Assembly: GCA_038046005.1 (NCBI GenBank)
Contig: JBBSXB010000009.1
Coordinates: 7,952 to 71,951, forward strand
Direction: 5' to 3'
DNA from: Nanobdellota archaeon
Lineage (GTDB): Archaea; Nanobdellota; Nanobdellia; Pacearchaeales; GW2011-AR1
Length of the DNA: 64,000 nucleotides
Each line of letters opens with the position of its first letter. Within the stretch, counting starts at the first letter, position 1. Shown in pieces: positions 3,226-63,700 of this stretch. The notes beneath the pieces are model-generated. The model worked only from the letters and a program-made list of their open reading frames with translations, was not told where the DNA came from and made no database searches. Position numbers and translations under genes: made by a program.

Positions 3226-3822
3226 ATGACACACGAATTACCAAAATTAGCATACAGTTACGATTCTTTAGAACCTTTCATAGATGCAAAGACCATGGAA
3301 GTACATTATAGCAAACACCATAAAACTTATGTTGACAAATTGAATGCTGCTTTAGAAAAACATCCTGAACTTCAAAAAAAGAAAGTTGAAGAGCTTTTGA
3401 TGGATTTAAATAAAGTTCCTGAAGATATAAAGACAGCTGTAAAAAATCATGGAGGCGGCCATTTTAATCATACTTTTTTCTGGCAGATTTTAAAGAAAGG
3501 TACAAAATGCAAAGCTGAAATTGAAAAAGCAATAATAAAAAAATTCGGAAGTTTTGATGAATTTAAAAAACAATTTTCAGATAAAGCAACAACATTATTC
3601 GGCAGTGGTTGGGTATGGTTAGTTTTAAACAAAAAAGAACTCGAGATTTTACAAACTTCAAACCAAGATTCTCCAATAAGCCAAAATAAAACCCCATTGA
3701 TAGCTCTAGATGTTTGGGAACATGCATATTATTTAAAATATCAAAACCGAAGAGCAGAATATATCGAAGCTTTCTTTAACGTAATTAATTGGGACAAGGT
3801 TAATGAATTCTTTAAAAAATAA
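3226..3822 (+). CDS. sod: Fe/Mn superoxide dismutase
   Basis: [10 protein letters not shown] and [15 protein letters not shown] motifs typical of the Fe/Mn SOD family. Confidence 0.9.
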
Positions 3823-5242
3823 ATCAGTTATAATGAAAAACTCTCAAGAAACAATTGATATAAATAGGGAAAGGTATGACCACTACAATCCAGAGGACCT
3901 TAAATTTAGGTCAAAACCCGGGATAAATGAAAATTTGATAAGAGAAATATCAAAAGACAAAAAAGAGCCAGAATGGATGTTAAAAAAAAGGTTAGAGGGA
4001 TTGAAACTTTTTAATGAAATAAAAATTCCAAACTGGGGCCCTGATCTTTCTGACCTGAATATTAATGAAATATCATTGTACATAAAACCAAATGCGAAAA
4101 GAAACTCTGAAAATTGGAATGATGTTCCTGAAGAAATAAAAAACACTTTTGAAAAGCTCGGAATCCCGCAAGCTGAAAGAGAAGTTTTGGCAGGAGTTGG
4201 AGCACAATATGAAAGTGAAGTTGTTTATCATAATCTGAAAAAAGAACTGAAAGACCAAGGAGTTATTTTCATAGATTGTGATGAGGCATTGAAAGAACAT
4301 GAAGAGCTTTTCAAAAAATATTTCATGACAACATGCATTCCTCCAAATTTGCATAAGTTCACAGCATTGCACGCAGCTGTATGGAGTGGAGGAACTTTTA
4401 TTTATATTCCAAAAGGAGTAAAATTAAAAGAACCACTGCACGCTTACTTCAGAATGAATGCAAAAAAAGCAGGCCAATTTGAACACACATTAATCATCGC
4501 TGATGAAGGCTCTGATCTTCATTATATTGAAGGATGTTCTGCCCCAGTATATTCTAAAAACTCACTTCATGCAGGAGGAGTCGAAATTCACGTATTAAAA
4601 GGAGCAAGAGTTCGTTATACTTCAATTGAAAACTGGAGTAAAAACACATATAATCTAAACACAAAAAGAGCAATTGTCCATGAAAACGGAATAATTGAAT
4701 GGGTAAATGGAAATTTAGGAAGTAAAGTAACAATGTTATATCCTTGCAGTGTTTTAATAGGAAAAAATTCAAAATCAGATTATATTGGGATAGCTTATGC
4801 TGGGCAAGGACAATATCAAGATACAGGATGCAAAGTGATTCATCTGGCTCCAAATACCTCATCAACAATTTTAAGCAAAGGGATAAGTAAAAATGGAGGA
4901 ATTAGTTCTTACAGAGGGCTAATAAAAATTCCAAAAGGATCAACAAACTCAAAATCAAGTGTAAGATGTGATGGACTGATGCTGGACAATTTAAGCAAGG
5001 CTTTAACATTTCCAAGCATGGAAGTTGGAGAAAATGAAGTTGAAGTTGCGCACGAAGCAGCAATTGGAAAAATAGGGGAAGAACAATTATTCTATTTGAT
5101 GTCAAGAGGTTTAAGTGAGCAAGATGCAATAAAAATAATTGTCTCAGGATTTATAGAGCCAGTAATAAAACTCTTGCCTTTGGAATATGCTGTTGAATTA
5201 AATAAATTAATAGAGTTGGAGATAGAAAACTCTGTATGTTAA
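3803..5242 (+). CDS. sufB: Fe-S cluster assembly protein SufB (alternative start MKNSQE at 3833)
   Basis: 479 aa; conserved SufB/SufD C-terminal beta-helix region ([45 protein letters not shown]). Confidence 0.85.
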
Positions 5243-5638
5243 ATGGAAAAATCACTTTACAAGGAAGAACTTCTTGAAATTTATTCTGAAAAACCAAACT
5301 ATGGAAAACTTAAAGGCAAAACTCATGAGCTAAAGCAAAGAAATCCAATTTGTGATGATGAAATAACTCTAGAATTAAAAATAAAAGACAATAAGATAAT
5401 TGACGCAAAGTTTCATGGAGTAAATTGTTTTGTGACAACTGTTTCATCATCTGTTTTAACTGAAAAAATAAAAGGAATGAAAATTGAACAGGCTTTAAAG
5501 TTGACAAAAAAAGATATTGATGAGTGGCTTGGAATAAAAATAACACCGGGAAGGATAAGATGTGAACTTTTAGCTTTGGATGCTTTAAAAAAATTAAAAA
5601 TAGATGTAAAAAACAATGCTAGAAATAAAAAATCTTAA
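5243..5638 (+). CDS. IscU/SufU-like Fe-S scaffold (NifU N-terminal domain)
   Basis: Three conserved Cys motifs: NPICDDE, GVNCFVTT, RIRCELLALDA (compare LHCSxLAEDA of IscU). Confidence 0.7.
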   Translation: MEKSLYKEELLEIYSEKPNYGKLKGKTHELKQRNPICDDEITLELKIKDNKIIDAKFHGVNCFVTTVSSSVLTEKIKGMKIEQALKLTKKDIDEWLGIKITPGRIRCELLALDALKKLKIDVKNNARNKKS

Positions 5639-6353
5639 AGTTGAAATAGAAGGAAAAGAAATTCTTAAAGGAATTAACTTAAAGCTTGAAGATGGAAAAA
5701 TACATGCATTAATGGGGCCAAATGGAAGTGGAAAAAGCACTCTTGCATTGGCTCTAATGAATCATCCTAAATACAAAATAACTTCAGGAAAAATTATTCT
5801 TAATGGAAAAGATATAACAAACCTCTCGCCAGATGAAAAAGCAAAAAAAGGATTATTTTTATCTTTCCAAAACCCCCAAGAAATTGATGGAGTAACAGTT
5901 TACAATTTTTTGAGACAAGCCTTAAATTCTGTAAGCAAAGAAAAAGTTTCAATTTTCGAATTCAGAAAATTAATTGAAAAAAAAGCAGAAGAGTTAGGAT
6001 TAGAAAAAGAATTTTTGCTGAGATACGTGAACGCAGGATTTTCTGGCGGAGAAAAAAAGAAATCAGAGATATTGCAGATGTTTGTACTTGATCCCAGCAT
6101 AGCTATACTTGACGAAACAGACTCTGGCCTTGACATTGACTCTCTAAAAACAATATCTGAAGGAATAAAAAAATTCACAAAAAAAGGAAAAATATCTCTG
6201 ATAATAACTCACTACAAAAGAATGTTGGAATATCTTAAGCCAGATAAAATATTCATAATGAGTGATGGAAAAATAGCCCTTGAAGGAGATAAAACCCTTG
6301 CAGATGAATTGGAAAAGAAAGGATATAAGGGTGTGCTGAGTGGGAAAGGTTAG
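5616..6353 (+). CDS. sufC: Fe-S cluster assembly ATPase SufC (ABC ATPase)
   Basis: Walker A LMGPNGSGKST, ABC signature FSGGEKKK, Walker B ILDETDSGLD. Confidence 0.9.
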   Translation: MLEIKNLKVEIEGKEILKGINLKLEDGKIHALMGPNGSGKSTLALALMNHPKYKITSGKIILNGKDITNLSPDEKAKKGLFLSFQNPQEIDGVTVYNFLRQALNSVSKEKVSIFEFRKLIEKKAEELGLEKEFLLRYVNAGFSGGEKKKSEILQMFVLDPSIAILDETDSGLDIDSLKTISEGIKKFTKKGKISLIITHYKRMLEYLKPDKIFIMSDGKIALEGDKTLADELEKKGYKGVLSGKG

Positions 6354-7507
6354 TTAGTCAAAAGTTCTTTTATAGAACTTAATCCAGTTTCAATATCTCT
6401 CTTCAATCTGTCTATATTTTCTCTTATATAATCACTAGCATTATCTATCTGTGTTAATTTAGTCTGAATATTCTTAAAGTCTAACAATTTCATTTGCAGT
6501 CCTTCGACTTGCTTTTGAATTTCATCTACAGGAATTGCTTTCTTGTTAACTTCTCCATTTCTCTCAACAAATAATCTTGCAACTCTATAAGCAAAGTAAA
6601 GACCATAATTATCGAAAGAGGTGATAATATAATTGTTAGTAATCTTCATTGGTGCTAAAGCCGTTGGAATTTGAGATTGAGACTTGAATAAAAATATACC
6701 AAACTTAGCGCTTCTGTTTTCTATTGCATCATTAATTTCATCAATGGTTTTTTTATGGGAGTAAGCTGAGCTATCTTTACACTCAATGATAACTCTTTTG
6801 TTTTCATCTCCATCAATATCAACAGCTATATCTCCTATTTTATTATTTTTACCCAAATTTTCTCCAACAAAAGCGATTATATCTTCGTACTCCGAACAAA
6901 AGTCCTCAATTGATTCAAGAACAACTTCTTCAAATTTGCTTCCCTTTAATGTTGTTTTTTCCATCATTTCCCCAGTAGCTTTTTCTTTTATTAATTCGTC
7001 TCTTAAATCTTGTATCTTTTTGAAAATCTCTTCTTTCAACTTATTAATAGGAGAGCCCTCTTCAAAAGGACTTAATAAATCGCTAATCTTACCTTTCCTT
7101 TTATCAAAATAATCTTCAAACAACACCCTCATTTTTCCTAAAGAACTGGAGTTGCTATCAACATCAAGTGTTTTTTCAATCATATTTTTAATGTCTTTTG
7201 ATTGATTTTCAGAACTCTTTAACAATTCTCTAAATTCTTTCTCAAGATTATTCTTAATATCTTTTGACTGACTCTCCAATCCCTTCAATACTTCTTTAAA
7301 CTCTTTCTCAATATAATCGACATTTTCAGTCAAGTAAAGATTTCTTAATCCTATCGCACCTATTATGATTGCTTTTTTAATAAAATCCTCTCTTTTATCC
7401 TCTTTAATGTCTTTTAGAATTTTGGAAGTATTTGAATCATTAATAATAAGATTGTTAATAAGTATGGATTCGTTCTCTACTTTAACTTTTTTGTCTTGCT
7501 CGTTCAT
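6350..7507 (-). CDS. coiled-coil protein with C-terminal PD-(D/E)xK nuclease-like domain (RmuC-like / DUF2130-like architecture)
   Basis: N-terminal ~250 aa heptad-rich repeats (KDIKNNLEKEFRELLKSSENQSKDIKNMIEK); C-terminal GDIAVDIDGDENKRVIIECKD matches the D...(D/E)xK nuclease core. Confidence 0.5.
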   Translation of the reverse strand: MNEQDKKVKVENESILINNLIINDSNTSKILKDIKEDKREDFIKKAIIIGAIGLRNLYLTENVDYIEKEFKEVLKGLESQSKDIKNNLEKEFRELLKSSENQSKDIKNMIEKTLDVDSNSSSLGKMRVLFEDYFDKRKGKISDLLSPFEEGSPINKLKEEIFKKIQDLRDELIKEKATGEMMEKTTLKGSKFEEVVLESIEDFCSEYEDIIAFVGENLGKNNKIGDIAVDIDGDENKRVIIECKDSSAYSHKKTIDEINDAIENRSAKFGIFLFKSQSQIPTALAPMKITNNYIITSFDNYGLYFAYRVARLFVERNGEVNKKAIPVDEIQKQVEGLQMKLLDFKNIQTKLTQIDNASDYIRENIDRLKRDIETGLSSIKELLTN

Positions 7508-7628: not shown

Positions 7629-8195
7629 ATGTCATCTCAAAAATCCAAAAGCAACTATAAAATACAGAATATCGTTGCCACAACTTCTTTAGAAAAGCCA
7701 ATTCCTTTGACTAAATTAGCAAGGACACAGCCTAACACAGAATACAATCCAGAGACATTCCCAGGCCTTGTTTTAAGGGTTAAAGAGCCAAAATCAGCTG
7801 TTTTAGTCTTCTCTTCAGGTAATTTAGTGTGCACGGGGACAAAATCAATAGCACAAGTCAAAGAAGTAATACAGGCAGTAATAAAACAACTAAGAAAGAT
7901 AAATGTCAACATTACAATAAAGCCAAAAATAACTGTCCAAAACATAGTCGCTTCAGGCTCAATAGACCTAAAACTTAACCTTAATTTCTTAGGATTGGAA
8001 ATGGAAAACACAGAATACGAGCCAGAGCAATTTCCGGGCCTTGTTTACAAACTAGCAGAACCGAACGCAACATTCCTTTTATTTAGTAATGGAAAACTTG
8101 TATGCACAGGAACAAAAAATAGGCAGCAATTGGAAGATTCCATGGATCAGCTTTTAAGAAACGTAAAGGCTGCATTGAAGAATTACGAGAAATAA
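7629..8195 (+). CDS. tbp: TATA-box binding protein
   Basis: Two direct repeats with IQNIVAT/VQNIVAS, PGLV, LVCTGTK motifs; 188 aa. Confidence 0.9.
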   Translation: MSSQKSKSNYKIQNIVATTSLEKPIPLTKLARTQPNTEYNPETFPGLVLRVKEPKSAVLVFSSGNLVCTGTKSIAQVKEVIQAVIKQLRKINVNITIKPKITVQNIVASGSIDLKLNLNFLGLEMENTEYEPEQFPGLVYKLAEPNATFLLFSNGKLVCTGTKNRQQLEDSMDQLLRNVKAALKNYEK

Positions 8196-8220: not shown

Positions 8221-8814
8221 TTACAAGTTTAGCTTTATTCCTGTTGAGAATTCTGGTGGATTTTGCCAAGGATATTTTTCCCCTCTAACGACTACAGATA
8301 AATCTTTTGCAATCTTAAAAGATCCTTCCAATTCTCCACTTGGAGTAATTTTTCCACTTTTGTAGTCTAAATCCACCCATCCTTCTAAGCCAAGAGCCTT
8401 ATAATTCGTAGAAGCATAAATTCCTAATTGAGAACCAAGTTTTCTAGAAGTTTCAATTGGTGAGAATTTAGCATCTAAAAATATTGGACCAACTTGTTTT
8501 GTGTAAGATACTTGAGGCCTGAGAATATCTCTTACACCAATGCCTCCGTTATACTCAGCTCCTACGGCAAATCCTTTTCCAAAAGATTTTCTTACTCTAG
8601 CTTCTCCATACATAGACTCAAAGTCAAAGTTCTTATCTCCATAAAGGTTAAGGAACCCATAGGCATTCTTTGTCCCTCTCTGAAGCTTGACAGTTGAGGT
8701 ATTGTCAGTCTTGTAAGTAGCTGTAGCATTTTGCCATTGAGCACTAGCTAAAGTTGGAACAGCTGATAAAGCCAAAGCTATAACAACATTTCTTATTGTT
8801 TTGTTCATTTTCAT
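8221..8814 (-). CDS. secreted beta-barrel (outer-membrane-protein-like) protein with bacterial-type signal peptide
   Basis: N-terminus MKMNKTIRNVVIALALSAVPTLASA|QW; alternating amphipathic beta-strand pattern with Gly/Tyr-rich turns; gene appears GC-richer than its surroundings. Confidence 0.45.
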   Translation of the reverse strand: MKMNKTIRNVVIALALSAVPTLASAQWQNATATYKTDNTSTVKLQRGTKNAYGFLNLYGDKNFDFESMYGEARVRKSFGKGFAVGAEYNGGIGVRDILRPQVSYTKQVGPIFLDAKFSPIETSRKLGSQLGIYASTNYKALGLEGWVDLDYKSGKITPSGELEGSFKIAKDLSVVVRGEKYPWQNPPEFSTGIKLNL

Positions 8815-8957
8815 CTTATTTTTCTCCTTTGATTTATTTAAGTAAAAAACGACTATGTCGCTTTTGTATTTACTTAATAATAGTATCAGATTTAACTATA
8901 TAAATAATAACTCTCCTAAAAAAGAGAGTTTAAATACTATGGACTGTTCAGTGTATT

Positions 8958-9674
8958 ATGGACACAAGTGTTCTGGAAGAGATAGGGTTGAACAAAGGCG
9001 AAGCAAAAGTATATCTTGCTCTTTTAGAATTAGGTGAGTCAAAAGTAGGTCCAATAATAGACAAGTCAGGATTAGTAAGTTCTGTTGTTCATGTAAATAT
9101 AAACAAACTGGTTGAAAATGGGTTGGCCTCTTATATTAAAAAAGGTAAAATTAAATTTTATAAAGCTGTTTCTCCAAAACAGATTCTTGATTTTATAAAA
9201 GAAAAAGAAAAGAAACTCCTAGAGATTATTCCTTTTTTAGAGGAAAAACAGAAAAAATCAGAAGGCAAGGAAGAAGCAGAGATATTTGAAGGGATTAAAG
9301 GAATAACATCAATGCTAAATCTTATTATTGAAAATTCAAAAAAAGGTGAAGAATTTTTCCTTTTTGCAACAGATATGGAAGAAAAACAAAAAGAAATACA
9401 AGAATTCTGGGAAAAATATGACTTGAAAAGAAAAGAAAAAAGGCTTATAGTCAAAGGCATAGCCCCAAAAAAACTAAGACATTTGTTCGCAAAAAGAGAA
9501 GTATTAAAAATGAAGTACACAAACTCTCCTCTTTTATCAAGCATAACTATATTCCAAGACAAAGTTGCAACTATATCTTTTGGCGAAAAACCTGTGGGAT
9601 ATTTGATAAAATCAAAGCAAGTATCAGAAATGTACAAAAATTACTTTAGGAAAATGTGGAAATCAATAAAATAA
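8958..9674 (+). CDS. TrmB-family transcriptional regulator
   Basis: N-terminal wHTH GEAKVYLALLELGESKVGPIIDKSGLVSSVVHVNINKLVENGLASY typical of TrmB; paralog of 36483..37241. Confidence 0.65.
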   Translation: MDTSVLEEIGLNKGEAKVYLALLELGESKVGPIIDKSGLVSSVVHVNINKLVENGLASYIKKGKIKFYKAVSPKQILDFIKEKEKKLLEIIPFLEEKQKKSEGKEEAEIFEGIKGITSMLNLIIENSKKGEEFFLFATDMEEKQKEIQEFWEKYDLKRKEKRLIVKGIAPKKLRHLFAKREVLKMKYTNSPLLSSITIFQDKVATISFGEKPVGYLIKSKQVSEMYKNYFRKMWKSIK

Positions 9675-9709: not shown

Positions 9710-10198
9710 TTGATAATAAAAATCATGAAAACACTTCCAACAATTATTTTAGCAACAGGATTATCAATACTTCCTGCAACAAAACAAGGAAATGCTGGAG
9801 TTGGAATTCCGGGAAATGTTGGATATTCTAATACAAATTCTTCCTCATCAAATTTACTTTACGGAAAAACCGAATTCAAAGGAATAGTCCAAGAAGAATA
9901 TTTAGAACGTGTCTCTGGAGATAGCCTAAAAATTACTCATGATTATCTTATAACAGTCCAAAAAGGAGATAATTTATCCGTCATAGCTGATAGAATAAAC
10001 AGTTTAAACAGAATGAGAGCAGAGTATCCTTTTCCAAGCAAGATTTCATGGCCAGATGTTTATAACACCAACTATATTTATGGGTCAGATAATATTTCTG
10101 ATCCAGACAAAATTTATCCTGGGCAAAGGATATTTTTTAAAACTGAGCATGAAATCCCTGTTTTTCATCACTTTCAGGGATTACGGGTTGGATCTTAG
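9710..10198 (+). CDS. secreted protein with LysM-like domain
   Basis: Signal peptide/TM MKTLPTIILATGLSILPA; LysM-like ITVQKGDNLSVIADRI...IYPGQRIFF. Confidence 0.45.
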   Translation: MIIKIMKTLPTIILATGLSILPATKQGNAGVGIPGNVGYSNTNSSSSNLLYGKTEFKGIVQEEYLERVSGDSLKITHDYLITVQKGDNLSVIADRINSLNRMRAEYPFPSKISWPDVYNTNYIYGSDNISDPDKIYPGQRIFFKTEHEIPVFHHFQGLRVGS

Positions 10199-10227: not shown

Positions 10228-10860
10228 CTAATAGTTATTAACTGAATCAGAAGAATCTTTTTTTCTAACTACCTCCACATTATCAGTAAACCAATTAGTT
10301 TTTTGGTTCAATCTGTAAATTCCCCAGAGATATGTTTTATAATTTACGTTTGCCTTAGTCATTATTGGATGCATATCGTTAAATCTAATTGCATCACTAA
10401 ATTCATTTTGTTGGAAAATAACCTCATCCACAGGTTTGTTATCATTTAAAGGTCTGCAAGAGTAAGATCTAAAGTCCAGAGGCCCATTAAGAACATCATC
10501 AAGAGTATAATTAGCTCTATATGGAACTTCCAAACAACCACAACCTTTATCGACATATTCATACAATTGTCCGTCCGCCCTCCTGACTTTTAGCGAGCAA
10601 TCGCAAGTAAAAGTATTTCTTTTAACACTAAATTCCGCTTCATCTTCTAAAAATTTTCCTTTAAAACCATATCTTTTCATTAAATCTACTTCCATGCGCT
10701 TATTACTCTGATACCATAAAGGAAGACTAAACCCCAGTGTTATGGCCACAGCCATGAGAAAGATATATCTAAATTTAGTCGTTTTTATTTCTTCATTATT
10801 TACTTTAGATTTCAAATTAGACGGAAAGACCCCATTCGGATCATATTCATATTGTTTCAT
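10228..10860 (-). CDS. hypothetical membrane-anchored Cys-rich protein
   Basis: Single N-terminal TM (FRYIFLMAVAITLGFSLPLWY) followed by an extracytoplasmic domain with CDC, CGC and C motifs. Confidence 0.35.
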   Translation of the reverse strand: MKQYEYDPNGVFPSNLKSKVNNEEIKTTKFRYIFLMAVAITLGFSLPLWYQSNKRMEVDLMKRYGFKGKFLEDEAEFSVKRNTFTCDCSLKVRRADGQLYEYVDKGCGCLEVPYRANYTLDDVLNGPLDFRSYSCRPLNDNKPVDEVIFQQNEFSDAIRFNDMHPIMTKANVNYKTYLWGIYRLNQKTNWFTDNVEVVRKKDSSDSVNNY

Positions 10861-10978: not shown

Positions 10979-11941
10979 ATGACAGAATTAAAATCTATAG
11001 ACCGAAAAATATTATTTGAATTAGATTCAAATAGCAGGCAATCATTTAGAACCATTTCAAAAAAAGTTGGATTAAGTAAGGATGCTGTAATTTATAGGAT
11101 AAATAAATTAAAAGAAGAAGGAATAATAAAAGGATATCAAACAATACTAGACTTAGGTAAGTTAGGATTTATTTCATTTAGGCTTTACTTAAAATTTCAA
11201 AACACAACTCCAAAAAAAGAAGAAGAAATAATTGAATTTTTAAAAAGACAAAAAAACATCAGTTGGATAGTTTCTATAGAAGGAGAATATGATTTGGGAT
11301 TATGGTTTTTATGTAAAAAAAATAAAGAAATGGATTTATTCTGGAAAGAACTACTAAAAAAATATAGAGATTATATAGAAAAAAAATGGTTAACAATTCC
11401 AACGAACGTTATTTACTACTCTAGAAACTATTTATTAGAAGATAATAATCAAAAAATAGAGGAATTCAATTTTATTTCTGATTTAGAAGTAAAGATTGAT
11501 GATGTTGACTTAGAATTATTGAAAGTAATTTCTTCTAATGCTAGGCTTCCAGTTTTAGATATTTCAAAAATTATAAAATTAAATCCAAAAACAGTAATGT
11601 CTAGATTAAAAAGATTAGAAAAAGAAAAGATAATAATTGGATATCGATCAGTTTTTGACATTGATATGTTAGGATATCAGTACTTCAAAATACACTTTAA
11701 CCTTCATAATTTAACCAGTGAAAATGAAAAAAAATTAAAAAATTATATAAAAGAAAATGAGAATATAATATTCAATAATGAAATTTTAGGAGGAGATGAT
11801 TTAGAAATAGAAATCCAAGTTAGATCACTTCAGGACCTAAGAAAACAGATTGATGAAATAAAGAAGAATTTTTCTGGAATTATAAGGAATTATAAGTATA
11901 TGAACTTCTACAAAGAACACAAATGCCTATCTTTTCCTTAG
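10979..11941 (+). CDS. tandem Lrp/AsnC-type HTH transcriptional regulator (two HTH_AsnC-like repeats)
   Basis: IDRKILFELDSNSRQSFRTISKKVGLSKDAVIYRINKLKEEGII and DLELLKVISSNARLPVLDISKIIKLNPKTVMSRLKRLEKEKII. Confidence 0.6.
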   Translation: MTELKSIDRKILFELDSNSRQSFRTISKKVGLSKDAVIYRINKLKEEGIIKGYQTILDLGKLGFISFRLYLKFQNTTPKKEEEIIEFLKRQKNISWIVSIEGEYDLGLWFLCKKNKEMDLFWKELLKKYRDYIEKKWLTIPTNVIYYSRNYLLEDNNQKIEEFNFISDLEVKIDDVDLELLKVISSNARLPVLDISKIIKLNPKTVMSRLKRLEKEKIIIGYRSVFDIDMLGYQYFKIHFNLHNLTSENEKKLKNYIKENENIIFNNEILGGDDLEIEIQVRSLQDLRKQIDEIKKNFSGIIRNYKYMNFYKEHKCLSFP

Positions 11942-33668: not shown

Positions 33669-34070
33669 ATGAAAAATTTTTATACCAAAATAGACAAAAC
33701 GCTAAAAAAAGCTCCAAAAAGAGTTATAGGAATGTATAATAATTTGATAGCCGGAATAATAGGAGGAACTATAATTTATTACCTATTAATCTTAAAAACT
33801 CTTGAGAATATAATTCTAGGATTTTTTTATGTATTGATTCTAATGATTCTAGGATTTCTTATTTTATTGAATATTTTAAAAAATATAAGAAGCAAAAAAT
33901 CAAAAAAAGATGAACTAAAAAATTATATCTGGAATGTGCTAATGGCTTTATTAGGGGGTTTTTATTTATTACTAGTATTTAATTTAGGATTAAACAAAAT
34001 TTTGTCAGGATTAATTCTTTTAGTTTTATTCATACTGATCAGTTATTTTAGAAATAAATATAACTTCTAA
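33669..34070 (+). CDS. hypothetical membrane protein
   Basis: Four TM helices. Confidence 0.35.
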   Translation: MKNFYTKIDKTLKKAPKRVIGMYNNLIAGIIGGTIIYYLLILKTLENIILGFFYVLILMILGFLILLNILKNIRSKKSKKDELKNYIWNVLMALLGGFYLLLVFNLGLNKILSGLILLVLFILISYFRNKYNF

Positions 34071-61216: not shown

Positions 61217-61554
61217 TTTTTATTTTTTTTAGGTTTTATTTTTTTATATAAGAAAGATACTAAACAAATTATTAAATACCAAAAAATACCATCAATAATT
61301 AAATAAAATAAAGAAAAATTTGCTGTCCTGACCCCACAATCATACACAAGTTCGGAGCTAAGAAGACTGGGGCCAGACACTATCTCTTCTAAAAATTTAA
61401 ATGGACTACCCGCAGATCTAAGGCATGGACAAGGATCACAAAGAGCAAGGAAATAAAATCCTATAAAAAACATTAATAAGAATATTAATATTAAGAAAAT
61501 GAATTTACCCCTCGTAGGCTTAAAAAATTCTTTTGTGTTATTTTTCTTTATCAT
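61213..61554 (-). CDS. small membrane protein
   Basis: TM helices; 4-nt overlaps with both flanking genes. Confidence 0.3.
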   Translation of the reverse strand: MIKKNNTKEFFKPTRGKFIFLILIFLLMFFIGFYFLALCDPCPCLRSAGSPFKFLEEIVSGPSLLSSELVYDCGVRTANFSLFYLIIDGIFWYLIICLVSFLYKKIKPKKNKK

Positions 61555-62366
61555 CTTACCAGCAAACTTGCCCCCAAAAGTCCAGGATGTTCAATCTTGC
61601 TCCATTCTATAGGTGTTTTTTTAGGAAGAACGCTATATTTCCATGCTTTCTTTCTTATCATATTCAAAAAAACATTTCCACTCTCTCTAGCCCCACCCAT
61701 TAAAACAACAACTTCCGGATCAAAAACATTTATCATGCTTCCAATTCCTTCTCCAAGATAAAGCGTCACATCATCCAAAATCTTCTTAGCTCTTTTATCT
61801 TTCATTTCTAAAAGCTCTTTTATAAGCAAAACTTTTCCAAAATGTTTTATTGATTCTTTTTTATGCATTTTCCACATACTCTCAAAATCTTTTCCATTAT
61901 TTAGAATAATATGCCCCATCTCGCCTGCAAATCCCCCTCCCTTATACAATTTTCCATTTATTATTATTCCTCCTCCAATTCCTGTCCCAAAAGTTAAAAT
62001 TATAAAATTTTTCTTCCTCACACCATAATACATCTCAGACAAAGCAACACACTTTGCATCATTTTCAACCTCAACTCTAACTTTAAACTTCTTTTTCAAA
62101 TAGTCCTTAAGATCAAAATTTCTCAAGGGTAAATTTGGGGGGTTTTTTATCACGCCATTTAACAATGGACCCGGACTCCCAACACAAATTGCTTTAACCC
62201 CTTTCCCCATCAAACCTGAAACAGAATCAAAAATAGCCTTAATCAACGCCTTGCCAGTTTTAGGAGTTGGAACTCTTGTATAGTCTATAATCTTTCCATT
62301 AGTAACAATAGCGGTTCTCAAATTTGTTCCTCCCAAATCAACAGCAATGACTTTATTTCCGACCAT
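61551..62366 (-). CDS. ROK-family sugar kinase (glucokinase-like)
   Basis: VIAVDLGGTNLRTAIV, GTGIGGGIIINGKLYKGGGFAGEMGH. Confidence 0.85.
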   Translation of the reverse strand: MVGNKVIAVDLGGTNLRTAIVTNGKIIDYTRVPTPKTGKALIKAIFDSVSGLMGKGVKAICVGSPGPLLNGVIKNPPNLPLRNFDLKDYLKKKFKVRVEVENDAKCVALSEMYYGVRKKNFIILTFGTGIGGGIIINGKLYKGGGFAGEMGHIILNNGKDFESMWKMHKKESIKHFGKVLLIKELLEMKDKRAKKILDDVTLYLGEGIGSMINVFDPEVVVLMGGARESGNVFLNMIRKKAWKYSVLPKKTPIEWSKIEHPGLLGASLLVR

Positions 62367-62685
62367 ACTTATCCTCCAATCTTATAATATCATTTTCATC
62401 AAAATCACCATATGAAACTTCAAGAACTCTAACTCTTTTTGGTCCAGCAATAATTCTATGTTTTGTTTTCCTTGGAACTTTAACAAAATCTCCTTCTTTG
62501 ACCTTGAACTTTCTATTGCCAACAACTGCAAATCCTGACTCAAGAAAATACCAATTCTCCTCTCTTTTGTTATGGTATTGCAAACTAAACTCCTGTCCAG
62601 GCTTCACTTCAAGAATCTTAATAGTACATTTTTTGTTTTTTGCAAACCCCTTGAAATTCCCCCAAGGACGAATCACCTTTTTCAT
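62353..62685 (-). CDS. cupin-domain protein (type II phosphomannose isomerase-like cupin)
   Basis: RPWG...G..FSLQYHNKREE.WY.L.G motif typical of MPI-type cupins. Confidence 0.7.
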   Translation of the reverse strand: MKKVIRPWGNFKGFAKNKKCTIKILEVKPGQEFSLQYHNKREENWYFLESGFAVVGNRKFKVKEGDFVKVPRKTKHRIIAGPKRVRVLEVSYGDFDENDIIRLEDKYGRK

Positions 62686-62721
62686 AAGAACATTAGATAA
62701 ATTTAACTTAAATACTTTATC

Positions 62722-63633
62722 TTAAGAACCTTCATTGGGAAACTGCCCTTTTGCAACTAAATTAAGCGAGGGAATGTGAGCCGAAGTTGTAAACACATAA
62801 TTTACTGCTTCACCGACTGAAGTTGGAGGTGCTAAAGTAATTTGCTTTCTCCAAATTCCATTATATTCGTCAGAAATAACTTTAACAGCTTCTTGAACAG
62901 AAAGATTATCATACATTCCCGTATCTACAGCTCCTGGTCTGATTGTTGTTAAAAAAATATTATCTTTATAATTACTTAACATTGCACTATTAGCATATCT
63001 GTCTATTGCCCCCTTAGCCGCACAATGTGTGCCACCATAGGAATATCCTCTTATTGCACTCATCGAACTTACTATAGCAATCCTCGACTCTCTTTGTTTT
63101 CTAAATAAGGGAAGTAAGTTCTGCATCATCAAATGTGTGGATCTCAAAACAGTATTAGACTCGTTTTCAAGTAAGTCTAAAGGTATTTGATCTAGAGGTA
63201 AGTAAGGATTATCATCTTTTAATTTATAACTTCCCGCACCTAATCCAACAGACTGAACCCAGTACAGATTTTTATCTTTAGGAAGACTTTCAACAAACTT
63301 CTTAACTTGAGCCCCATCCAACAGATCCAAAGCAGAATATTCTATTAAACCGCTTCCAACATCTTTCTCAAGTGCATCTTTGATGTTTTGTAATTTATCT
63401 TCAGAAGTTGAAACCATATGAACAATAGCACCATTTCTAGCTAAAAATCCTGCTACTGCTGTGCCAATGTTTGCTTTCATCTTTTTATGATCAATAGAGA
63501 TATAATCTGCACTATCTTCTCCAGATACAATATCTCTAAAAGTGTTGGTAGCTGGCTTATATCCACATCCAGTTACAACTATTCTTTTCCCATTTAGTCT
63601 TCTTGATTTCGCAATATCTTCTAGTCTTTTCAT
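62722..63633 (-). CDS. Rossmann-fold short-chain dehydrogenase/reductase-like oxidoreductase
   Basis: GKRIVVTGCG; cofactor-binding NIGTAVAGFLARNGAIVHMV; YGGTHCAAKGAID active-site region. Confidence 0.5.
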   Translation of the reverse strand: MKRLEDIAKSRRLNGKRIVVTGCGYKPATNTFRDIVSGEDSADYISIDHKKMKANIGTAVAGFLARNGAIVHMVSTSEDKLQNIKDALEKDVGSGLIEYSALDLLDGAQVKKFVESLPKDKNLYWVQSVGLGAGSYKLKDDNPYLPLDQIPLDLLENESNTVLRSTHLMMQNLLPLFRKQRESRIAIVSSMSAIRGYSYGGTHCAAKGAIDRYANSAMLSNYKDNIFLTTIRPGAVDTGMYDNLSVQEAVKVISDEYNGIWRKQITLAPPTSVGEAVNYVFTTSAHIPSLNLVAKGQFPNEGS

Positions 63634-63700
63634 TTAAAATTTAGTAATTTTAATTACTAAAAAATAGTAGCATCGTGTTTTAACTAAATTTACCCGACAA

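Follow-up and report, generated by a model that had tools for sequence, protein, structure and literature searches.

The protein encoded at 8221..8814 on the minus strand of a DNA stretch from a Nanobdellota archaeon is predicted with high confidence, on structural models, to be a 12-strand barrel of the outer-membrane type. The stretch comprises 64,000 nucleotides (assembly GCA_038046005.1, contig JBBSXB010000009.1, positions 7,952 to 71,951 of the forward strand); we refer to it as the window and number it from its first nucleotide. The protein carries a predicted Sec signal and a C-terminal end resembling the beta-signal of outer-membrane proteins (OMPs), and its gene appears to have long been kept in a cassette with a TrmB-family regulator in Woesearchaeota. 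We tentatively propose that it represents the first outer-membrane-type beta-barrel family native to Archaea. What is new is the family, its archaeal setting and its pairing with TrmB; the fold and the membrane grammar were already known.

Predicted structure and export signal

AlphaFold2, run on an alignment of 46 family members, gave a model with a pLDDT of 91.4 and a pTM of 0.80, in which a helix at residues 5-17 is followed by 12 antiparallel strands in a meander, joined by connections of 2-9 residues. When P0013, a family member 33% identical to the window protein, was the target, the model again had 12 strands (pLDDT 92.4, pTM 0.82). Foldseek searches of the PDB at E<1e-3 returned 53 matches for the window protein and 83 for P0013, and the best 50 in each case were bacterial outer-membrane barrels or designed transmembrane barrels. 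Among neighbours of similar size KdgM matched best, at TMt 0.65 and a root-mean-square deviation of 4.4 A for the window protein, and at TMt 0.69 and 3.9 A for P0013. VhGalP, NanC, PcoB, OMPLA, Tsx, the intimin/invasin beta-domain and FapF came next, and for P0013 the top matches were KdgM together with VhGalP, the Vibrio oligogalacturonate porin. Scores to solved 12-strand barrels were 0.55-0.69 on the TM scale. In the viral library BFVD, the matches were OMP-like barrels of phages, one of them a DUF481 protein. The model does not resemble an oligomerising beta-pore-forming toxin, in which a soluble monomer contributes one or two hairpins: all 12 strands of the modelled barrel come from one chain, which has no soluble domain. 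An earlier note on this DNA, made from the letters alone, had read the protein as an OMP-like beta-barrel; the two models, the listed structural matches (all of them membrane barrels), the strand alternation and the C-terminal end described below all agree with that reading.

The gene is an open reading frame (ORF) of 197 amino acids with an ATG start. Its signal-peptide codons lie at 8740..8814, the codons of the 172-residue mature protein at 8224..8739 and the stop codon at 8221..8223, all on the minus strand. The N-terminus is MKMNKTIRNVVIALALSAVPTLASA|QW, with a basic n-region, a hydrophobic h-region (Kyte-Doolittle hydropathy, KD, of 1.58 in a 19-residue window) and an A-S-A c-region. This N-terminal pattern is common to all 46 family members, which also conserve a Trp after the predicted cleavage site, and in the AlphaFold2 model the N-terminal helix that corresponds to the predicted signal peptide is detached and of low confidence. 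The Sec signal with an A-x-A cleavage site named in the earlier note thus holds as a prediction, with cleavage at ASA|QW. So does its description of an amphipathic, Gly/Tyr/Asn-rich chain: the mature part has 11.6% Gly, 5.8% Tyr, 5.2% Asn and no Cys, and shows strong beta-type amphipathic periodicity.

The start at 8814 is supported because a Shine-Dalgarno sequence, GGAG, read from the sequence at 8824..8827 on the minus strand, lies 9 nucleotides before the first ATG, and because the homologues likewise begin MK(I/M). Two relatives, at loci that we call L004 and L001, have GGAG and GGAT, respectively, as their Shine-Dalgarno sequences. The exact protein is present at NCBI as 'MAG: hypothetical protein AABW51_04700 [Nanoarchaeota archaeon]'. 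The gene is tail-to-tail with the TBP gene at 7629..8195 on the plus strand (PF00352, E 2e-57) and head-to-head with the TrmB-family gene. It is a real ORF between tbp and a TrmB regulator, as first described, and both neighbours have matches to their Pfam families, PF00352 and PF01978.

Strand faces, turns and the C-terminal end

All 12 strands alternate between a hydrophobic and a polar face. As a family mean, the hydrophobic face has a KD of +1.42 with 6% charged residues, and the polar face a KD of -1.40 with 31% charged residues. The polar face holds 22 of the 32 most conserved strand columns and about a dozen near-invariant charged residues, and its conserved positions include R43, E45, D56, E71, R73, E87, R99, K116, D148, E161 and R179. 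The hydrophobic face varies freely among aliphatic residues. The conserved charges thus sit on the polar face and the hydrophobic face is variable; a soluble barrel, whose core is conserved, would show the opposite. This pattern suggests a lipid-facing exterior and a functional lumen. The barrel uses up all 172 residues of the mature protein and nothing is left to plug the lumen, so lipid would be needed around or inside the barrel, and we infer that the protein is embedded in lipid.

Two further features recall OMPs. In the DSSP string of the AlphaFold2 model, the turns on the side of the termini have 3, 3, 2, 2 and 4 residues and the loops on the opposite side 4, 5, 2, 9, 2 and 7, an asymmetry that, as modelled, fits the OMP rule. 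The consensus of the OMP beta-signal is G-x-x-Hy-x-Hy with a terminal aromatic residue, usually Phe. The window protein ends in STGIKLNL, which fits this pattern with Leu in place of Phe. At the extreme C-terminus the pattern occurs in 25 of the 46 members as against 1 of 83 window ORFs; with at most two trailing residues allowed, the counts are 34/46 and 5/83. A terminal Phe is found in 27 of the 46 members. The beta-signal concept itself has been described previously (PMC8292188). The protein thus has the predicted signal, the even-stranded meander, the turn and loop pattern and the beta-signal-like end of the OMP class; it does not have significant profile homology to a curated OMP family.

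Distribution and origin of the family

A word-indexed search recovered only five close relatives of the protein, at 62-100% identity. A HMMER search of 1.84 billion cluster representatives returned 45 proteins at E<=1e-3. A few of these are fragments and the remainder are about 190-235 amino acids long, all with a signal peptide. We excluded P0018 (1188 amino acids) and P0025 (432 amino acids) as repeat or low-complexity artefacts. With about 40 genuine clusters among the 1.84 billion representatives, the family is rare. A scan of GTDB with one peptide pattern, derived from a 14-sequence subset, found 3 loci, titled Woesearchaeota or 'uncultured archaeon', and a metagenome scan with the same pattern also found 3; because a one-pattern scan gave so few loci, the distribution is probably under-sampled.

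Scans of the protein against Pfam, NCBIfam, PHROG and PADLOC gave nothing significant, and PDB sequence and profile searches gave no relevant match. Across the 46 members the sub-threshold matches were to PF24653 in 4 members (best E 8e-4), PF13505 (E 0.057) and PF16946 (E 0.094). A reading as a defence-system or phage gene was rejected, given the lack of library matches and the housekeeping context. Our search of the literature on porins or beta-barrels of DPANN archaea and Woesearchaeota found no description of the family. The gene is present in one copy, with no paralogue in the window.

Every informative context of the family is archaeal, and the contigs of homologues carry archaeal markers (aEF1A, L15e, L35Ae, aEF-1beta and archease/RtcB). 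The most marginal member, P0046 (E 3e-4; L020 907..3641), has no TrmB neighbour. Its contig, at 52% GC, instead carries a DsbA/thioredoxin-like gene, a gene for a 221-amino-acid protein without assignment and a trypsin-like (Trypsin_2) protease gene. These neighbours are of the envelope quality-control type, and the contig could represent another, possibly bacterial, branch of the family.

The earlier note had also called the GC content clearly above the surroundings, and had raised horizontal acquisition or a chimeric assembly as explanations. The gene has a GC of 0.364 against a mean of 0.327 (standard deviation 0.036) for 71 window ORFs. This excess of 3.7 points amounts to z = +1.0, so the gene is only weakly raised, level with the TBP (0.360) and MCM (0.372) genes. 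Its GC at third codon positions is typical (0.239 against 0.251, standard deviation 0.048) and at first positions ordinary; only at second positions, at 0.416, does it top the 71 ORFs. The excess therefore reflects amino-acid composition. The note had paired ordinary composition with a non-barrel fold as what would overturn its reading; the composition is ordinary, the predicted fold is a barrel, and the barrel finding stands.

Other evidence also bears on transfer and assembly. The contigs of 13 homologues span 28-56% GC; the GC of each gene follows that of its contig (r = 0.98) and is offset from it by the same +2 to +6 points. The order TBP, barrel, TrmB, LysM is assembled identically in 12 contigs from several samples, which include 0.1-um groundwater fractions and independent Logan assemblies; the longest contig listed has 199,934 bases. 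The window itself contains the archaeal genes TBP, MCM and Lrp/AsnC. The barrel lies beside an archaeal-type regulator, with archaeal TATA-box promoters, syntenic in 14 of 15 lineages whose contigs carry archaeal markers. Among the 1.84 billion representatives, those matched at E<1e-3 whose context could be checked included no bacterial homologue. In favour of a recent bacterial or phage source are the bacterial type of the fold, the small rise in GC, the sub-threshold matches to the phage OMP family PF24653 and the phage barrels in BFVD; against it stand all of the observations above, including the lack of PHROG and PADLOC matches. Neither a chimeric assembly nor a recent horizontal acquisition is supported. 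Taken together, we conclude that the barrel family is native to Woesearchaeota-type DPANN archaea. The fold may be of ancient bacterial or phage origin.

Pairing with a TrmB-family regulator

The divergent neighbour, at 8958..9674 on the plus strand, encodes a 238-amino-acid protein that matches PF01978 over residues 6-74 (E 6.3e-11, above the gathering score). All ten syntenic partners examined match PF01978, and partners from different lineages align over their full length. A profile built from the ten aligns end to end with TrmBL2 (5bpd/5box; E 1.6e-6), but with P. furiosus TrmB (3qph) it aligns in the DNA-binding domain only, over residues 5-109. By sequence, then, the partner is a TrmB-family member of the short, TrmBL2-like type; TrmBL2 is without a sugar-binding part (PMC4158304).

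A TrmB-like gene lies divergent from the barrel gene and immediately upstream of it in 14 of 15 lineages, across which barrel identity is 25-74%; the exception is P0046. Because the rest of the neighbourhood differs between lineages, we regard the barrel and TrmB genes as a two-gene cassette. Small ORFs called between the two genes in L008 (9649..10011, 120 amino acids), L012 (7748..8008, 86 amino acids) and L021 (4323..4784, 153 amino acids) overlap the barrel start. We considered them as a third component and rejected them, as they are mutually non-homologous and absent from other loci; they may be spurious calls.

A second TrmB paralogue lies near the cassette in L010 (8249..8989), L016 (6..383) and L021 (2366..3094). 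In L021 two TrmB genes are adjacent, one of them encoding 392 amino acids, and the second gene has its own upstream TACT-N7-AGTA sequence. These observations suggest an expanded TrmB repertoire in these small carrier genomes.

Promoters and candidate operators

The intergenic region between the TrmB and barrel genes is 143 nucleotides long and 84% identical among three relatives. Each gene has its own TATA-like box. The box of the barrel gene, TTTATATA at 8897..8904 on the minus strand, was read from the sequence and is invariant in three close relatives, and analogous boxes lie on the barrel side in L008, L010, L012, L015, L016, L018, L022 and L023. From the TATA spacing, barrel transcription is predicted to start near 8874, giving a leader of about 60 nucleotides. 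The TrmB box, TTTAAATA at 8929..8936 on the plus strand, is conserved in relatives and centred about 26 nucleotides before the ATG; with this spacing, the start placed by it would give a leaderless or near-leaderless transcript. A sigma-70 promoter scan was uninformative for an archaeon, and its 'terminator' match was the central palindrome described below.

Between the barrel TATA box and the predicted start, and overlapping the start, lies the palindrome TACT-N7-AGTA (8871..8885), a candidate TrmB operator. The exact sequence is found in the TrmB-barrel intergenic region of six lineages, that of the window included; in the roughly 190 kb of fetched loci the only other copy is the one before the second TrmB gene in L021. 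Operators published for TrmB read TACTN3AGTA and TACT-N7-8-GAGTA, and repression is conferred from sites that lie downstream of the TATA box and overlap the start (PMC4158304). Because the palindrome resembles these operators and occupies the repressor position, we propose, by analogy, that the partner represses the barrel gene and probably also regulates itself from the shared promoter.

A second candidate regulator site lies between the divergent TATA boxes. It is a perfect inverted repeat, AACTCTC-N8-GAGAGTT, at 8909..8930, and is unique in the window. CTCTC...GAGAG is found at the same position in the window, L001, L004, L008 and L012, where the TrmB proteins are 46-100% identical; CCCCC...GGGGG takes its place in L010, L015/L017 and L016, where TrmB is more divergent, and other palindromes do so in L018, L022 and L023. 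The central palindrome thus keeps its place and changes its sequence along with TrmB.

At its 5' end, the leader of the barrel mRNA is predicted to form a small hairpin at 8840..8875 on the minus strand, with a core palindrome CGAC-TAT-GTCG at 8850..8860. The stems differ in sequence and keep complementarity, reading CGAC/GTCG in the window, CTCAC/GTGAG in L001 (3262..3300) and GTGCT/AGCAC in L004 (3769..3790), with RNA fold z-scores of -2.7, -3.9 and -3.4, respectively. The hairpin may serve to stabilise the mRNA or to regulate it, or may be a further palindrome bound by a protein.

The exact TACT-N7-AGTA sequence occurs twice in the 64-kb window. The second copy, at 63655..63669, lies 22 nucleotides upstream of a minus-strand operon at 61551..63633, which encodes a short-chain dehydrogenase (62722..63633), a mannose-6-P isomerase-type cupin (62353..62685) and a ROK sugar kinase (61551..62366). 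The operon may be a further target of a TrmB-type regulator, and the placement hints at a shared, sugar-related regulon, although two copies against 0.75 expected are not a significant excess.

Surrounding genes

Beyond the TrmB gene lies a plus-strand gene at 9710..10198 for a LysM protein with a signal peptide (PF01476, E 5e-6; weak endolysin PHROG match), followed on the minus strand at 10228..10860 by a gene for a 210-amino-acid protein with an N-terminal membrane anchor, several Cys residues and no family match. Neither gene accompanies the cassette in the other versions of the locus. Two genes from the cassette in L001 there is an Amidase_2 gene. The presence of LysM in a DPANN archaeon agrees with the published proposal that some of these organisms attach to partners with peptidoglycan.

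Farther out, the plus-strand gene at 10979..11941 encodes a 320-amino-acid regulator with a duplicated architecture, having two AsnC-type helix-turn-helix domains and a Lrp/AsnC ligand-binding domain. Its GC of 0.238 is the second lowest of the 71 window ORFs, after that of 33669..34070. On the other side, the minus-strand gene at 6350..7507 encodes 385 amino acids with a long, coiled-coil-like N-terminal half and, in the C-terminal half, weak, sub-threshold matches to the restriction-endonuclease-like domains HSDR_N_2 and Mrr_cat; it has no PADLOC match. Upstream of the locus, at 3803..6353 on the plus strand, is an iron-sulfur assembly cluster of SufB/D, NifU-like and SufC (ABC ATPase) genes. 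The same Suf/NifU-like genes flank the distant barrel member in L008, and the shared cluster may be remnant synteny.

Known barrels and regulators

The closest known systems are the KdgM/NanC porins (4fqe, 4pr7, 2wjr, 8xua), which are 12-stranded, monomeric, specific for acidic sugars and located in the outer membrane of Gram-negative bacteria. The archaeal barrel shares with them a length of about 170-210 residues, 12 antiparallel strands, very short loops, a Sec signal (predicted here) and, by analogy, a dedicated local or pathway regulator. It differs in sequence, with an identity of 7-16% and no match to PF06178 at E<=1 for the window protein or at E<=0.1 across the 46 members, in which 9 families were matched. 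The KdgM pore is lined by tracks of basic residues for acidic sugars, whereas the conserved residues of the putative archaeal lumen mix Arg/Lys with Asp/Glu. The host also differs, being an archaeon without a demonstrated outer membrane or known barrel assembly machinery (BAM).

Other small 12-stranded barrels are also related in structure. OMPLA, PcoB, Tsx, the intimin/invasin beta-domain and FapF share the fold class (TMq 0.5-0.61). Phage OMP-like barrels (PF24653, Phage_OMP; DUF481 in BFVD) show that such barrels can be encoded outside diderm bacterial chromosomes and delivered to a host envelope. Unlike these outer-membrane and phage barrels, the archaeal protein has no catalytic or passenger domain, stays below threshold in Pfam, has no PHROG match and is encoded in a housekeeping context on an archaeal chromosome. 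A different parallel is PopA, which likewise is of the OMP type and belongs to an organism that lives off other cells. PopA proteins are much larger and form oligomeric bowls, whereas the protein described here is predicted to be a closed, monomeric barrel of 172 residues and comes from another lineage. A one-line remark mentions a possible distal PopA relative of 549 amino acids in Ca. Altiarchaeales (PMC12228718); it is the only published hint that we found of an OMP-like barrel in a DPANN-associated archaeon.

Among archaeal systems, the pore protein Ihomp1/Imp1227, from the outer cellular membrane of Ignicoccus, is a small oligomer built of alpha-helices and not a beta-barrel. It is comparable in that it sits in the second, outer membrane of a partner-associated archaeon. 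On the regulatory side, the TrmB systems of Thermococcales and Halobacterium (TrmB with the malE trehalose/maltose (TM) operon; VNG1451C) likewise combine a PF01978 winged helix-turn-helix, a gene for solute passage and a TACT-based palindrome downstream of the TATA box. They differ in that the partner described here is short (238 amino acids, TrmBL2-like) and the gene it would control encodes a beta-barrel and not an ABC transporter.

Possible functions and locations

The reading that we favour, and hold tentatively, is a TrmB-repressed, Sec-exported and lipid-embedded channel like KdgM/NanC, most likely in the membrane of a host. The protein would be exported by Sec, with its signal peptide cut at ASA|QW. 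The mature chain of strands and tight turns, with its variable hydrophobic face outside and its conserved charges in the lumen, would then embed in lipid and most likely form a narrow channel for solutes. The TrmB-like regulator would bind the predicted sites, TACT-N7-AGTA and the lineage-specific palindrome between the TATA boxes, and keep the barrel gene off until a signal arrives, possibly one linked to sugars or nutrients. As its location we favour the place where the archaeon meets a partner cell. The membrane would then not be the cytoplasmic one of the archaeon itself but most likely that of the host at the site of contact. There, the barrel would give a metabolically poor symbiont access to small solutes.

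We favour a host membrane because of the episymbiont lifestyle, the rare and accessory nature of the cassette, the LysM and Amidase_2 neighbours and the reported entry of PopA into prey membranes. According to an earlier proposal, small Woesearchaeota and Pacearchaeota live as episymbionts, in some cases on bacteria (PMC8204110). The Bdellovibrio predator OMP PopA was reported to insert into prey membranes (PMC12228718), and OMPs refold better into thinned or perturbed bilayers (PMC8292188).

Several points weigh against this reading. No significant sequence-profile link to any OMP family was found across the 46 members. The difference in conservation between the two strand faces is a trend only (Mann-Whitney p=0.09, entropy), aromatic enrichment at strand ends is weak (0.18 vs 0.13), and the face taken to point outward is a deduction, as alternation alone gives no orientation. 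On the regulatory side, the partner does not have the sugar-binding subdomain of classical TrmB/TrmBL1, and the number of TACT-N7-AGTA copies in the window is not significant, as 0.75 copies are expected where 2 are present, and at least 2 also turn up in 18 of 100 shuffles. As for insertion, BAM/Omp85 insertases are, to our knowledge, not known in Archaea. A fully hydrophobic monomeric barrel also has no obvious route from the Sec pore to the membrane of another cell, and the nearest bilayer is the archaeon's own.

A serious alternative, though we consider it unlikely, is that some Woesearchaeota are diderm and that the barrel serves in their own outer membrane as a specific porin, induced via the local TrmB. 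The protein has the full OMP grammar for such a role, with a signal peptide, an even number of strands, short turns where the termini lie and a beta-signal-like C-terminus, and specific porins are the closest fold class. A dedicated regulator, together with the second TACT-N7-AGTA site before a sugar operon, fits the logic of specific porins and parallels KdgM/KdgR or NanC/NanR in bacteria. Double membranes have been reported for a small number of archaea, among them ARMAN (of the DPANN type), SM1/Altiarchaeum and Ignicoccus, and all of these interact closely with other organisms (PMC4243693). However, a recent preprint holds that two membranes are firmly known in Ignicoccus only, and our literature search turned up no outer membrane in Woesearchaeota. 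The rarity of the family, with 3 GTDB species genomes found under the one pattern, and its single copy in the window also count against a porin of the archaeon's own outer membrane. In addition, we saw no other OMP-type, insertase or envelope-biogenesis genes in the fetched neighbourhoods.

It is quite unlikely that the barrel serves in the archaeon's own cytoplasmic membrane, either for passive uptake or as a non-pore anchor or receptor like OmpX, OMPLA or the intimin beta-domain. By reasoning alone, this is the membrane closest to the Sec exit. A symbiont whose metabolism makes little or no use of proton-motive force may tolerate a passive uptake channel there, and tight local repression would limit leakage. 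For an anchor, the mixed acidic and basic residues of the lumen might be locked together in a closed network of salt bridges that leaves no pore, and the non-porin 12-stranded barrels OMPLA, intimin/invasin and PcoB score as well as porins do. On the other hand, beta-barrels in energy-transducing cytoplasmic membranes are, as far as we know, essentially unheard of, and the protein has no domain for adhesion or catalysis, its whole mature chain being barrel.

We regard as very unlikely a secreted soluble carrier that would ferry scavenged host lipids or other hydrophobic ligands to the symbiont in a hydrophobic lumen. Its appeal is that the alternation of residues leaves the inward face undecided. 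DPANN archaea are also commonly without lipid synthesis and obtain lipids from their hosts (PMC6349945), and lipid-enclosing porin-like proteins exist, for example in the PopA superfamily. Yet the most conserved positions, with their near-invariant charges, lie on the polar face, the reverse of what a soluble barrel would have. No lipocalin, avidin or FABP-type barrel is among the listed structural matches, and on geometric grounds a 12-strand lumen would be too wide for side chains alone to fill. Finally, a recently acquired bacterial or phage gene, or a chimera joining bacterial DNA to an archaeal contig, is extremely improbable, being already contradicted by the composition, contig and synteny evidence given above.

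Implications

It is usual to regard transmembrane beta-barrels as characteristic of the outer membranes of bacteria and of the organelles that descend from these. If the protein is truly in lipid, then either some DPANN archaea have an outer membrane that bears porins, or they plant a preformed barrel channel in the membrane of their host. In either case, the barrel would have to be assembled without known BAM/Omp85 machinery. We know of no candidate pore protein for the exchange of material between DPANN archaea and their hosts. A small, regulated barrel of 172 residues offers a concrete protein for expression, reconstitution and localisation, and the conserved candidate TrmB operator makes for a simple circuit that can be tested in a lineage not yet cultivated. 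The family would thus be of interest for archaeal envelopes, DPANN symbiosis and barrel biogenesis, as it bears on whether ultrasmall archaea can be diderm, on how episymbionts may tap their hosts and on whether OMP-type barrels can be built without BAM.

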